Source of the DNA: Escherichia phage vB_EcoM_NBG1 | Strand: one strand, 5' to 3' | Length of the DNA stretch: 64,000 nucleotides | Sequence record: MH243438.1 | Shown here: one piece after another, positions 40,978-43,616 of the stretch | Layout: each line of letters opens with the position of its first letter | How positions within the stretch are numbered: position 1 is the first letter of the stretch | Program-made: the position numbers and the translations under genes | Notes under the pieces: generated by a model | What the model was told of the DNA's origin: nothing | Database searches by the model: none | The model's input: only the letters and a program-made list of their open reading frames with translations

Positions 40978-41194
40978 TCAAATTGACATAAAACTCGGCG
41001 TCTTCCGGGTGCATGCCTTCGCAGTATTCTTCAACCATGAACTTCTTAACAGCTTCATAAGGACCACTCAGATTAAGCTCAGTTGTCCAGAACTTGGAAT
41101 CTTGGGCTGAATCGATACGAACTTCAGGGTGTCGGTTGCGAATAACTTCTTCGGTGTATTCATAATCAACGACATCAATACTAACTTTAGCCAT
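40967..41194 (-). CDS. hypothetical protein
   Basis: 75-aa ORF. Confidence 0.45.
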   Translation of the reverse strand: MAKVSIDVVDYEYTEEVIRNRHPEVRIDSAQDSKFWTTELNLSGPYEAVKKFMVEEYCEGMHPEDAEFYVNLIKK

Positions 41195-41240
41195 TTTGTT
41201 TTCCTCTTGATTTGATGTGATTACTATAACATAAACTTAC

Positions 41241-41405
41241 TTAGATGTAAATTATTTCAACGTCACCTTTAGCTGCTTTATAACCTTCAGCCCAAGATAC
41301 AACAGAGTTTTTATCCGAGGATTCAAATTCAGGCATTGGACTTTCACCAATATTCACACAGTATGTTTCTTCATTTTCATCGAACCAAATAATTAAAGTA
41401 GTCAT
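41241..41405 (-). CDS. small hypothetical protein (54 aa)
   Basis: Hand-translated MTTLIIWFDENEETYCVNIGESPMPEF... Confidence 0.3.
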   Translation of the reverse strand: MTTLIIWFDENEETYCVNIGESPMPEFESSDKNSVVSWAEGYKAAKGDVEIIYI

Positions 41406-41473
41406 TTTGTTTACTCCTCTGTAGTTGATAAGTCTATAGTATCACCGTCCTTGGTGCTTGTACATCGTTATTT

Positions 41474-41779
41474 TTAATTTTTCCAACTTAACAACTTGTA
41501 GTGTCCTTCATTCATACATGGTTTATCCCAAGAAATACTAATATATGATTCACCGTCAATAGAAGTCGCCGGGTTTTTCTCTACCGTAAGACCTTCACTT
41601 TCCAGCCATTCAATAGTATTTGCGCATAAATCGGAAGAACACCTCATCGGAAACCTGCAAGATTTTTCACCTTTAGCTGCAGTGTTATACATCTTTTCTA
41701 AAATACGCTTTTGCACGTTTTTAAAAATAGTTTCAGCAGATTCTTCAGATTTTTTATTCAGTTCAGTGTAAAGACTCAT
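41474..41779 (-). CDS. hypothetical protein
   Basis: 101-aa ORF. Confidence 0.5.
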   Translation of the reverse strand: MSLYTELNKKSEESAETIFKNVQKRILEKMYNTAAKGEKSCRFPMRCSSDLCANTIEWLESEGLTVEKNPATSIDGESYISISWDKPCMNEGHYKLLSWKN

Positions 41780-41865
41780 AATATTTTCCTCATGTTTTTA
41801 TAGGTCTATAGTAACACATCTAGGGAAGAAGTAAACAACTTTATGAAATATTTTTATGCCCTAGA

Positions 41866-41896
41866 TGCCAAAAAGCCCCAACCTTTCGGAAGGGGC
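41866..41896 (-). terminator. Rho-independent terminator closing the tRNA transcription unit
   Basis: Hairpin GCCCC..CC-TTTC-GG..GGGGC followed by TTTTTGG; sequence copy of terminator at 26286-26316. Confidence 0.55.
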
Positions 41897-41939
41897 TATG
41901 CCTTGCGGCAACCTTGTCGGGGTTCCACCTGCTAAGGCA

Positions 41940-42205
41940 AGTGTTTGTACGAAACGCCGGGATTCGAACCCGGTTATTAAGCAGTTGACGCTACTCAATA
42001 TTTTTAAAAGGCCATATCTCGACCATATCCGAACGTTCCGTCAAAAACGCTACTCGGCTTACGGCAAATATATTTCCTCGAATCGATAATTCTGTGCGCC
42101 GTTTCTGCTGTGATGTAAGGGGATATTAACAAATCGTAAAGATTTATTAAGACCAGTCCTTACTCAGGGAACATCAGTCCGACGACTTACCGGTAGCGAC
42201 CCGGC
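41940..42205 (-). ncRNA. candidate small stable RNA(s) with tRNA-like 3' domain
   Basis: Perfect T-arm ACCGGG-TTCGAAT-CCCGG followed by acceptor-like CGTTTCG able to pair with upstream CGGAACG; no canonical cloverleaf found. Confidence 0.3.
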
Positions 42206-42208
42206 TTC

Positions 42209-42553
42209 TTATTTTGGCATATCATCAATTTGCTCTCGACGCCGACGCCATAGATTAATCGCTTCATTGGCACATTCTGCGTTTGGTATATGACGGCAGT
42301 AATATAATGATTCGCGTTTCTGGAACCGATGTTGCAACGGGATTTCGTTTAAAAGGTCTTTACGGTCAAAGTATTCAAAACTAGTTAACCCAGAACGGTT
42401 TTTAATGAACTTCCAATGGCCGAATTCATTTTGAACATAGATGTAATCTGCATGTTGGTATAACAAATTAATCAATCGGTCTGAAATAACTGTATCATTT
42501 TCGTTAAAATAAAACGTTAAATCATGAACTACCAAATAAATATTGCCTTTCAT
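42209..42553 (-). CDS. hypothetical protein abutting tRNA-Arg
   Basis: 114 aa from MKGNIYLVVHDL; longer track ORF would overlap the tRNA. Confidence 0.45.
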   Translation of the reverse strand: MKGNIYLVVHDLTFYFNENDTVISDRLINLLYQHADYIYVQNEFGHWKFIKNRSGLTSFEYFDRKDLLNEIPLQHRFQKRESLYYCRHIPNAECANEAINLWRRRREQIDDMPK

Positions 42554-42571
42554 ATTTTCCTCACTTAAAGT

Positions 42572-42648
42572 TGGCCGAGACAGAAGGATTCTAACCTTCA
42601 ACCTACGGATTAGAATTCCGTTGCTCTATACAATTGAGCTATGCCTCG
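42572..42648 (-). tRNA. tRNA-Arg (anticodon UCU)
   Basis: 77-nt cloverleaf folded by hand with 7-bp acceptor stem, GCTC/GAGC D-stem, anticodon loop AUUCUAA, T-arm GAAGG-TTAGAAT-CCTTC, encoded CCA. Confidence 0.7.
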
Positions 42649-42654
42649 AATATA

Positions 42655-42728
42655 TGACCCAGACCAGATTCGAACTGGTAACCTTTCCCTTATGAGGGGA
42701 CTGCTGCTAACCATTGAGCTACAGGGCC
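42655..42728 (-). tRNA. tRNA with CAU anticodon (Met or Ile2 type)
   Basis: 74 nt, anticodon loop CUCAUAA, T-arm ACCAG-TTCGAAT-CTGGT; one acceptor mismatch and unclear D-stem in my reading. Confidence 0.6.
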
Positions 42729-42805
42729 TAAATAACTTTCTATTATGAAAGGCACTTTAGAGCACCTTTGGTAATAGAGGGTAGATTAATAATAACACAT
42801 AATTC

Positions 42806-43321
42806 TTAAAGCAAATCAATCATTTTAACAGTCGGCAAAACAATTTCTTCTTCAATATAAGCGAATTCAACACGTTCAACTACACGCAAGAAATCATAGT
42901 CGTAGTATTCGGAAGCATAGCCAAGAATATCAATAAGTCCTTGAGATATCTCATCGCCTTTCACAAAGAACAGGTCGAATACGCGGGCTTCGTCTTCTTC
43001 AGATTTATCACCAAGGTCTACTTCGATACCAAAGACCTTTTTAATAAATTCCGGTTGGAGTTGGTCTGAGAACAGTCCTTCAACCAAGTATTCATAGATT
43101 AAAAGCGAGCAATCACTGAATGGTGTATTACCACAATAACGTTCGGCTTTAGTGCTAGAATGACGACTCTTAAATTTCTTCAAGAGATATTTAAACTGTT
43201 GGAGCTCATGCTCTTCTACACCAAATAATGTTTTGGTTTTATAGTTGTCGCCGTCATTTTCCCAAGTAGTGACATCAATTACGTAACCCTTAGGAATTGT
43301 ACTGCCTAAACAAATATTCAT
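42806..43321 (-). CDS. hypothetical protein
   Basis: 171-aa acidic ORF. Confidence 0.5.
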   Translation of the reverse strand: MNICLGSTIPKGYVIDVTTWENDGDNYKTKTLFGVEEHELQQFKYLLKKFKSRHSSTKAERYCGNTPFSDCSLLIYEYLVEGLFSDQLQPEFIKKVFGIEVDLGDKSEEDEARVFDLFFVKGDEISQGLIDILGYASEYYDYDFLRVVERVEFAYIEEEIVLPTVKMIDLL

Positions 43322-43325
43322 TTAC

Positions 43326-43616
43326 TCACCGTACCATATTAATGTAATTATATTCAATGCAACGTAATTTCAAAGGATTCTTGAAAATATCATATTCAAG
43401 AGGGCCTTTTTCTGTTTCAATAAAGAAATCAAAGTTAACTGTGTTAAATTTATCGTCTTCACAAAATAATTTAACCTGTGAAGATGAACGGTCGATATAA
43501 ACCTTTTCAACCTCAAAGTTGGTCAGAATACCGTAGTCATCGACTAGTGCTTTAGCTGCACGTTGATCGCTTTCGTATCCGTTCTCAATAGATGACACTT
43601 TAGCATAAAGAATCAT
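43326..43616 (-). CDS. hypothetical protein
   Basis: 96-aa ORF. Confidence 0.5.
   Translation of the reverse strand: MILYAKVSSIENGYESDQRAAKALVDDYGILTNFEVEKVYIDRSSSQVKLFCEDDKFNTVNFDFFIETEKGPLEYDIFKNPLKLRCIEYNYINMVR

Follow-up and report, generated by a model that had tools for sequence, protein, structure and literature searches.

The tRNA and Stable-RNA Region of Escherichia Phage vB_EcoM_NBG1, a Probable Mosigvirus Version of the Phage T4 Transcription Unit

Introduction

What kind of locus is formed by the two tRNA genes, the small protein gene and the structured stretch that succeed one another around positions 41,866 to 42,728 of the vB_EcoM_NBG1 sequence? An earlier note, made from the letters alone, described a reduced tRNA cluster, a protein gene wedged against tRNA-Arg, and a noncoding region resembling stable RNA. 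The window, which here means the whole 64,000-nt stretch of record MH243438.1 that was analyzed, comes from a Mosigvirus (RB69-like) T-even phage genome, and the tRNA/stable-RNA unit lies entirely on its minus strand. Comparison with related phages indicates, with a probability of about 0.93, that the locus is the T4 tRNA/stable-RNA transcription unit in its Mosigvirus (RB69-type) form. This kind of locus is already known, and its two stable-RNA genes, rnaC and rnaD, are without annotation in Mosigvirus records. In T4 both RNAs are real, accumulate late and have no known function (PMC3014915; PMC9697503). The features discussed below are as follows; the ends of rnaD and rnaC are transferred from the T4 annotation.

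42789..42815, minus strand: putative T4-type middle (MotA-dependent) promoter, a consensus match upstream of the tRNA pair
42655..42728, minus strand: tRNA with anticodon CAU, orthologue of T4 tRNA-Ile (ARAGORN; Rfam tRNA, 54.0 bits)
42572..42648, minus strand: tRNA-Arg with anticodon UCU, reading AGA, with an encoded CCA (ARAGORN; Rfam tRNA, 65.6 bits)
42209..42553, minus strand: 114-aa ORF of the RB69ORF150c family (phrog_3355), a protein specific to T4-like phages
42093..42212, minus strand: orthologue of rnaD (T4 species 2 RNA), by alignment to the T4 misc_RNA rnaD
41948..42086, minus strand: orthologue of rnaC (T4 species 1 RNA), a tRNA mimic, by alignment to T4 70908-71045
41898..41947, minus strand: conserved 3' trailer containing small hairpins (alignment and folding of 13 distinct homologues; MFE fold)
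41870..41897, minus strand: predicted intrinsic terminator, AGCCCCUUCC-GAAA-GGUUGGGGCU followed by UUUUU
41808..41836, minus strand: match to a T4-type early promoter (GTTTAC-N17-TACTAT), which would serve the next gene (41779..41474)

Identity and Boundaries of the Unit

The closest matches are Mosigvirus genomes, in which the order is trna.4, trna.3, trna.2, a 171-aa ORF, tRNA-Met/Ile, tRNA-Arg, ORF150c, a gap and the next genes. The segment 42212..41870 is 92.5% identical over 347 nt to T4 70822-71168, which bears the misc_RNA features rnaC and rnaD, and the match takes in rnaD, rnaC, the conserved 3' trailer and the terminator; in the T4 record NC_000866 the two RNAs span 70908-71171. The description of this region as "reminiscent of T4 stable RNAs" was therefore correct and understated, since it is the direct rnaD and rnaC orthologue. 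The noncoding DNA had been placed at 41940-42205; its noncoding status stands, but the unit is slightly wider (42212..41870) and comprises rnaD, rnaC and a 77-nt trailer and terminator, of which only the T-arm of rnaC had been recognized.

The locus would be read as a single minus-strand transcript, starting at or upstream of the middle promoter match (42815..42789) and running through tRNA-Ile(CAU), tRNA-Arg(UCU), the 114-aa ORF, rnaD, rnaC and the structured trailer to the intrinsic terminator at 41897..41870. The putative promoter consists of a MotA box, TTTGCTTTA (42815..42807), a 12-nt spacer and a -10 element, TATTAT (42794..42789), and T4 carries the same arrangement, ATGCTTTA-N12-TATTAT, upstream of its tRNA-Gln gene. 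The MotA middle-promoter consensus is well established for T4.

At the other end, the trailer hairpins include CACUUGC-CUUA-GCAGGUG and GCC-GCAA-GGC, and the trailer is retained in phage JS10 despite the deletion of rnaC. The earlier note had the region end at a strong terminator, and a predicted hairpin followed by a U-run is indeed found at 41897..41870. Its stem contains a 2x2 U.U internal loop, whereas that of T4 is fully paired; because of this loop, a simple terminator scan missed it. In the relative SA79RD this terminator is annotated as such. The early promoter match beyond it is kept in relatives, similar early-promoter features being annotated in SA79RD, and it appears to mark the downstream boundary of the unit.

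The tRNA Pair

Scanning of the 64-kb window yielded exactly two tRNAs, separated by 6 nt (ARAGORN), and no scanner match under the ORF. Both form cloverleaves with a 7-nt anticodon loop (Rfam, ARAGORN) and exceed the RF00005 gathering threshold of 29; nothing else in the whole window matches Rfam at gathering level. The cluster is thus reduced as had been claimed, with two tRNAs against eight at the same locus in T4 (ARAGORN, Rfam RF00005 and the T4 annotation).

The CAU tRNA is called tRNA-Met by the scanners, and it is identical to the annotated T4 tRNA-Ile at 73 of 74 positions. By orthology and by the published assignment (PMC1524935), it is most probably a lysidine-type tRNA-Ile that reads AUA after modification. 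The number of tRNAs varies among T4-like phages, and a CAU lysidine-type tRNA-Ile is universally retained (Nolan et al., 2006; PMC1524935). The two-tRNA set is the published RB69-type arrangement. The tRNA-Arg belongs to a lineage distinct from the T4 tRNA-Arg and, by alignment, is near that of Dhakavirus JS10. It has A32 and G73 where three Mosigvirus relatives have C32 and A73. In this tRNA, A56 is found in the T-loop and U19 in the D-loop.

In the long ORFs of the window, AUA and AGA are used 10.7 and 7.7 times per 1000 codons, respectively. The tRNA pair would supply these two codons, which the AT-rich phage uses commonly and E. coli rarely.

Structure and Conservation of rnaD

The rnaD element matches its T4 counterpart in sequence and in its position directly upstream of rnaC. 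Its 5' end, as aligned to T4, overlaps the stop codon of the ORF by 4 nt. The RNA folds, with an MFE z of -3.1, into two hairpins: one at the 5' end with 5 bp and the loop GUCGCUA, and a long, irregular one whose base is invariant and whose tip varies. RNAalifold gives 28 pairs, 8 of them with compensatory changes. The invariant parts common with T4 are the 5' 45 nt and the 3' 25 nt. Four diverged rnaD variants share this architecture, the variable tip being a hairpin in every one, and the alignment indicates that the tip has been replaced several times around the invariant core. A reading of the rnaD motif CUGAUG...GAAAC as a hammerhead or K-turn was rejected, there being no Rfam support and no third helix.

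Structure and Conservation of rnaC

As in T4, rnaC is found where the tRNA cluster ends distally, with rnaD on its upstream side and the trailer and terminator on its downstream side; it differs from T4 rnaC at 3 positions in 138 nt. When 26 distinct homologues are compared, a cloverleaf-like structure emerges, made up of an acceptor stem of 7 bp, a canonical T-arm, a long (~70-nt) arm and a 10-bp arm with the loop CGUCAA. The perfect T-arm and acceptor-like stem noticed at the outset correspond to CCGGG-UUCGAAU-CCCGG at 41973..41957 and to the pairing of CGAUUCG (42085..42079) with CGUUUCG (41956..41950), which includes two U.U pairs. Across the alignment the structure has 46 pairs, 21 of them with compensatory double changes, and 97.9% of cells paired; the slid-partner controls gave 37-48% paired and 3-7 double changes. 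Within the acceptor stem, an A-U pair has switched to G-C in 12 of the 26 sequences, and in phage PM2 both U.U positions are U-A pairs.

The loop UUGACG (42044..42039) is complementary to the loop CGUCAA (41990..41985). All six loop-loop pairs are intact in 26/26 homologues, including one lineage in which an A-U pair has become G-C (UUGGCG with CGCCAA); in PM2 only the 4-bp GACG/CGUC core is kept. Invariance together with this one evolutionary event supports a putative kissing contact between the apical loops of rnaC.

Neither ARAGORN nor RF00005 matches rnaC, even at E <= 10, and there is no Rfam match to rnaD or rnaC at E <= 10 over 41000-43500; weak isrK and YrlA matches were set aside, as they fall on the wrong strand or in the wrong place. 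A covariance model built from 18 homologues, the window sequence included, has one match in the 64-kb window, rnaC itself, at 152 bits; this score is expected by construction, and what the search shows is the absence of a second copy. In Moon-, Karam-, Kanagawa- and Mosugukvirus, rnaC lies between tRNA genes with tRNA-like spacing, and in four other T4-like loci a full-sensitivity search with the covariance model returned tRNA-level noise only. Two pattern searches were discarded: the loose pattern GCGTCAAC...GGTTCRANTCC found mostly ordinary tRNAs in unrelated contigs, and a three-motif pattern found eight more contigs, seven of them by chance within coding DNA. The eighth contig (L141) contains a true rnaC copy with its 3' part missing, which was left out of the alignments.

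Possible Roles of the Stable RNAs

In infected cells T4 rnaC is a discrete, stable RNA of ~140 nt (PMC9697503). In the NBG1 phage, the acceptor stem of rnaC stacked on its canonical T-arm would form a tRNA "top half", which would let the host tRNA-maturation enzymes excise the RNA (RNase P at the 5' end, trimming at the 3' end) and keep it stable. We infer this tRNA-like route from the top half itself and from the tRNA-like placement of rnaC in other genera. The long arm and the 10-bp arm would replace the D and anticodon arms, and pairing of the loops UUGACG and CGUCAA would lock the body. With no 7-nt anticodon loop and no CCA end, the NBG1 molecule would be unable to decode; it would instead occupy or titrate a factor that recognizes the tRNA acceptor/T-arm. 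This decoy or titration role is a conjecture. The second RNA, rnaD, would act separately, as a host-specific infection factor.

A wider reading takes rnaC and, independently, rnaD as trans-acting anti-defence or host-takeover RNAs. The rnaC top half would decoy or block a tRNA-recognizing factor, such as an immunity nuclease that cleaves tRNAs or an enzyme of tRNA processing or modification, and rnaD would be a host-strain-specific determinant of infection. It fits with how extremely the loops and core are conserved, with the gain and loss of the two RNAs as modules across genera and with the case of phage BW1, whose adaptation to E. coli ECOR34 was accompanied by a single rnaD SNP common to all three evolved lines (PMC12685909). 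That SNP could, however, pre-date the evolution in the stock or act in cis. A search of the window for antisense targets of the rnaD core and the rnaC loop matched only the elements themselves or chance-level 8-mers, and no similarity to or antisense target of rnaC or rnaD was found in 5,426 E. coli genomes. This anti-defence or host-takeover reading is put forward tentatively and is rather improbable.

The structured region could also be a cis-acting 3' processing and stability module for the maturation of tRNA-Arg and for the ORF mRNA, with entry sites for RNase P, RNase E or RNase III and a terminator that together protect or limit that mRNA; the stable RNAs would be by-products. Co-transcription with the tRNAs and the ORF is in keeping with this, as is the survival of the trailer hairpins and terminator after rnaC deletion. 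It also agrees with T4 studies of the 1970s-80s, in which host processing nucleases acted on precursors that included both species 2 and species 1. However, 260 nt with loops and single-stranded segments invariant across genera exceed what a cis function needs, rnaC also occurs in mid-cluster among tRNAs with no adjoining ORF or terminator, and both T4 RNAs accumulate as discrete late species (PMC9697503). A cis-acting module of this kind is unlikely.

Nor is it at all probable that the region is functionless, with rnaC a degenerate tRNA gene, rnaD and the trailer junk spacer, and all of it transcribed through its place in the tRNA operon. Such a relic would explain why rnaC retains an acceptor stem and T-arm but has no usable anticodon loop or CCA end, and why rnaC is missing in JS10 and rnaD in Moonvirus and others. 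Deletions of the whole T4 cluster are viable on laboratory hosts, which points the same way. Against decay, rnaC shows its 3/138 differences from T4 where the dNMP kinase encoded nearby keeps only ~63% identity between the Mosigvirus and Tequatrovirus loci, compensatory changes maintain the helices over at least six genera, and both rnaC loops are invariant or co-varying. The rnaD core has likewise stayed invariant through the repeated replacement of its tip, and the rnaD SNP carried by every evolved BW1 line points to a phenotype (PMC12685909).

The 114-aa ORF

The ATG of the ORF is the 19th base past the end of tRNA-Arg, in agreement with the first description, and is preceded by GAGGAAAAT. 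Homology searches assign the product, 91% identical to RB69ORF150c, to phrog_3355, a very narrow family of T4-like phages. To call the gene wedged is right as to its placement between tRNA-Arg and rnaD, but slightly misleading if taken as a peculiarity of the NBG1 genome: T-even phages with the ORF at this site number in the hundreds (425 phage records; also Sf22), and in more distant genera it is found at the distal end of the cluster of tRNAs. The ORF is thus a regular resident of the tRNA-Arg/rnaD site.

That this gene entered the tRNA cluster as a mobile or homing element substituting for SegB is highly improbable. T4 does have the GIY-YIG homing endonuclease SegB in a neighboring intergenic position and has no copy of the ORF, one homologue carries the label "endonuclease" in its database record, and short CCAA repeats flank the ORF cassette. 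Yet the protein has no Pfam domain at E <= 1 beyond sub-threshold noise, no match in PADLOC and none among PDB sequences or in a fold search, which gave no nuclease fold, and its BLASTP comparison with T4 SegB (E = 1.5) reveals no similarity; the earlier observation that it lacks the GIY-YIG motif and is not SegB agrees with these searches. The eight representatives of the family are all phage-like and short, save for one spurious repetitive match, and in four genera proteins 29-99% identical are encoded at the same place at the distal end, which looks like vertical inheritance.

Coding Status of the rnaD-rnaC Stretch

Every frame across rnaC is interrupted in at least one homologue, and the homologues vary in length by 1-3 nt, which identifies the region as noncoding. 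Many GenBank T-even records annotate one or more small proteins over the 340-nt stretch, a coding role that has next to no likelihood. The ORF listing does give a 74-aa plus-strand ORF with an ATG start (41865..42089) and minus-strand ORFs of 42-45 aa with TTG starts, and several database records place CDSs ("hypothetical protein") here. Against coding, besides the variation in length, the frame open in the window has a stop in T4 and four in PM2, the substitutions are compensatory across helices and not codon-periodic, and T4 rnaC and rnaD are experimentally known RNAs (PMC3014915; PMC9697503).

Significance

Taken alone, the locus is of minor interest, as it is the expected RB69-type tRNA region. 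Few phage noncoding RNAs have been known for as long as the T4 stable RNAs, for which reviews still give no function; in many database records they are unannotated or over-annotated as hypothetical proteins. The comparison supplies a covariation-supported tRNA-mimic fold for rnaC and a testable loop-loop contact. It also presents rnaD, rnaC and the trailer as separable modules, whose natural variants (CCA-ended rnaC, JS10 without rnaC, and Moonvirus and other genera without rnaD) allow comparison.

Comparison with Known Systems

The tRNA region of RB69 and other Mosigvirus phages has the same gene order and the same two-tRNA set as the window. Many of these relatives contain an additional 154-aa ORF behind a duplicated terminator, which is absent from the window and from PHB12.

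In T4, by contrast, the 114-aa ORF is missing and rnaD begins 1 nt from tRNA-Arg. In the window the 345-nt ORF intervenes and the T4-like 5' context is not found; since rnaD here follows the ORF, its 5' end may arise in another way. The 3' end of rnaD is ...CACC(A) in T4 and ...CACAG in the window, and the apical hairpin also differs. SegB of T4 is likewise encoded among the RNA genes of a tRNA cluster, but between tRNA-Ile and tRNA-Arg, a different intergenic site from that of the ORF.

With a canonical tRNA (RF00005), rnaC shares a 7-bp acceptor continuous with a 5-bp T-stem and the GGUUCGAAUCC T-loop, and in other genera it is placed and spaced like a tRNA gene inside clusters. It departs from a tRNA in its length of 139 nt, in its 3' end (U-ACA, not N-CCA) and in having neither a D-arm, replaced by the arm of ~70 nt, nor a 7-nt anticodon loop. 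The loop in its place has 6 nt, is invariant and is complementary to another loop.

By architecture, rnaC resembles the tRNA-like domain of tmRNA and the tRNA-like module of the bacterial Y RNA YrlA, in which an acceptor/T-arm is likewise set on a non-tRNA body. ARAGORN found no tmRNA, and rnaC has no tag ORF and no G3.U70; the sole YrlA match (17.8 bits, E = 2.4) falls on true tRNAs and not on rnaC. What sets rnaC apart from both is its body, consisting of two arms joined by a putative loop-loop contact.

Gene Order and Boundaries

The region 41866-42728 is the known T4-type tRNA and stable-RNA unit in its RB69-type form. The genes around it lie on the minus strand, as do its own features:

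42728..42655, minus strand: tRNA(cat) (ARAGORN; Rfam tRNA model, 54.0 bits)
42648..42572, minus strand: tRNA-Arg(tct) (ARAGORN; Rfam tRNA model, 65.6 bits)
42553..42209, minus strand: 114-aa ORF with a good ribosome-binding site
42212..42093, minus strand: rnaD, by alignment to T4
42086..41948, minus strand: rnaC, by alignment to T4
41947..41870, minus strand: conserved trailer and terminator, by alignment to T4
41897..41870, minus strand: hairpin and U-run closing the noncoding stretch

An earlier note, made from the sequence alone, described this arrangement with correct coordinates and counts throughout; the observation as a whole is confirmed and its interpretation supported. The ~340 nt located 3' of the 114-aa ORF contain no credible ORF and end at the hairpin and U-run (41897..41870), the predicted terminator that the note had placed there. 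Beyond it lie a match to a T4-type early promoter and then the next gene. The closest relatives of the region are Mosigvirus (RB69-like T-even phages; 93-96% identity by megablast), in which the order is gene 1, 57A, 57B, ipI, trna.4, trna.3, trna.2, a 171-aa ORF, two tRNAs, RB69ORF150c (the family of the 114-aa ORF), a gap, and the e.x genes. Mosigvirus, JS10, and Sf22 all have this 171-aa ORF (window 42806-43321, minus strand; phrog_2290, function unknown), which separates trna.2 from the tRNAs; T4 is without it at the same site. Many Mosigvirus and Tequatrovirus relatives carry an extra ORF of 154-157 aa right behind the rnaC terminator (L001:3481-3945 and L003:3480-3944 in two related loci), followed by a second terminator copy. 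The insertion point corresponds to ~41870, and the ORF is absent from the window and from phage PHB12.

The sequence TTTGCTTTA-N12-TATTAT (42815..42789), upstream of the tRNAs, is conserved ahead of the cluster in T4 too. It fits the T4 pattern of MotA-dependent middle promoters, and this consensus match makes it a candidate middle promoter.

The tRNA Genes

By ARAGORN the 64-kb window has two tRNA genes and no more, the number given in the earlier note, and these are also its only gathering-level Rfam matches. In the long ORFs of the window, AUA and AGA are used at 10.7 and 7.7 per 1000 codons, respectively, well above E. coli host usage, which fits a codon-supply role for both retained tRNAs. 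The CAU tRNA is identical at 73/74 positions to the one annotated as tRNA-Ile in T4, and the CAU tRNAs kept in all tRNA-bearing T4-like phages have been described as lysidine-type tRNA-Ile (Nolan et al., 2006; PMC1524935).

The tRNA-Arg(UCU) is not of the T4 lineage and is near the JS10 and Sf22 copies. In Mosigvirus (window 42572-42648, minus strand) its T-loop is UUAGAAU, with A at position 56, and its D-loop AAUUGUAUA, with U at position 19, so that the elbow tertiary pair G19-C56 is apparently replaced by U19-A56; the genes of JS10, Sf22, and T4 are canonical. The window copy further differs from three relatives at position 32 (A against C) and position 73 (G against A).

Identity of the Stable RNAs

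Window 42212..41866 aligns to T4 70822-71168 at 92.5% identity, with only 3 differences in 138 nt between the two rnaC copies. By this alignment the noncoding stretch corresponds to rnaD followed by rnaC, which turns the suggested likeness to T4 stable RNAs into an assignment. The region is found in about 800 phage records; rnaC and rnaD are annotated in T4's own family, and most other records are blank or hold "hypothetical protein" CDSs. Homologues vary in length by 1-3 nt and no reading frame stays open throughout the set, which marks the region as noncoding. The short ORFs over rnaC and rnaD (window 41865-42132) have 74 aa on the plus and 42-45 aa on the minus strand; many GenBank T-even records list their counterparts as hypothetical proteins, and such ORFs are most likely spurious.

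Structure of rnaC

The comparison included 26 distinct homologues from Tequatro-, Mosig-, Dhaka-, Moon-, Karam-, and Kanagawavirus and uncultured contigs, together with a divergent copy in Mosugukvirus PM2. The four-way, cloverleaf-like fold predicted by RNAalifold has a 7-bp acceptor stem in which two U.U pairs are conserved. A 3-bp stem then opens into a long arm of ~70 nt, followed by an A-rich linker and a 10-bp arm capped by a loop of 6 nt. Last comes a canonical T-arm of 5 bp with loop UUCGAAU, continuous with the 3' acceptor strand. Over 18 aligned sequences, paired cells make up 97.9% of the total and 21 pairs are changed on both sides, against 37-48% and 3-7 double-changed pairs in slid controls. 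The acceptor stem shows an A-U to G-C switch in 12/26 sequences, and both U.U positions are U-A pairs in PM2.

Two loops are exactly complementary, UUGACG at the apex of the long arm and CGUCAA on the 10-bp arm, and both stay invariant among sequences in which the rest of the arms cannot be aligned. One uncultured T4-like lineage (L158, L159, L170) has UUGGCG and CGCCAA instead, an A-U to G-C change that is compensatory, and in PM2 the GACG/CGUC core alone is kept. A loop-loop (kissing) contact is therefore likely, although the co-change is a single evolutionary event and falls short of proof.

The RNA is without a 7-nt anticodon loop and is not called by tRNA finders. Its 3' end is stem-U-ACA in the window and stem-U-CCA in the L158 lineage (L158:1728-1960, minus strand), where it reads ...CGUUCCG-U-CCA with the CCA encoded; upstream of these copies lies a ~52-nt mini tRNA-like sequence, GGGGUGG...CCCACUCCA. 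In Moon-, Karam-, Kanagawa-, and Mosugukvirus, rnaC is located between ordinary tRNA genes with tRNA-like spacing, a placement that argues for its release by the tRNA-processing machinery. In Kanagawavirus (L006:~1655-1795 and L009:~1575-1715) rnaC is directly followed by another oversized element that resembles a tRNA; it is ~135 nt long, with acceptor GAUUUGU/ACAAAUC and T-arm GUAGGUUCGAGCCCUAU, and has no ARAGORN or Rfam call.

Structure of rnaD and Modularity

The 5' hairpin of rnaD has 5 bp and a GUCGCUA loop, and its closing pair switches from A-U to G-C. It is followed by a long irregular hairpin with internal loops and an invariant base, whose tip has been replaced at least three times, forming a hairpin every time. 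Within the invariant core (window 42093-42212, minus strand) CUGAUG and GAAAC face each other across an internal loop, in letters reminiscent of hammerhead or K-turn cores; that reading has neither an Rfam match nor a third helix in its favour. The trailer, with small hairpins ahead of the terminator, is nearly invariant.

The modules are separable, since Dhakavirus JS10 (L005:1497-1700) retains rnaD and the trailer with rnaC precisely deleted. Moon-, Karam-, Kanagawa-, and Mosugukvirus (L006, L007, L008, L009, L173) have rnaC embedded among tRNAs without rnaD, which was found only in genera close to T4.

The 114-aa ORF

The ORF matches phrog_3355 (function unknown; E = 1.3e-50), a narrow family with homologues in 425 phage records; a profile search over 1.84 billion representative proteins returned 8 matches only. 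Identity is 90-99% in Mosigvirus, ~69% in many Tequatroviruses, and 29-39% in Winkler- and Mosugukvirus. Sequence searches of Pfam, PADLOC, and PDB gave no match, and direct comparison found no relationship to the homing endonuclease SegB, as the lack of a GIY-YIG motif had led the earlier note to expect. The gene occupies the distal end of the tRNA cluster in every case examined, between tRNA-Arg and rnaD in T-even phages, and this constant tie is the sole lead to its function.

Function and Comparison with T4

RNAC and RNAD were classed as late RNAs of unknown function, and RNAC was confirmed by Northern blot (2022 omics study, PMC9697503). During adaptation of phage BW1 to E. coli ECOR34, a single rnaD SNP was common to three of three lines, and the score for relative bacterial growth changed from 0.17 to 0.98 (2025 evolution study, PMC12685909). 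No antisense targets were found within the window and no similarity in E. coli genomes. A decoy or anti-defence role for rnaD and rnaC is conjecture, and rather improbable.

The T4 cluster (NC_000866) consists of seven tRNAs, segB, tRNA-Arg, the misc_RNAs rnaD (species 2) and rnaC (species 1), and the trailer. To this the present analysis adds the exact boundaries of the unit and a model of rnaC as a tRNA mimic, supported by covariation and with a probable kissing-loop lock. It also shows that rnaD and rnaC are distributed as modules and that the 114-aa ORF has a narrow range bound to tRNA clusters.
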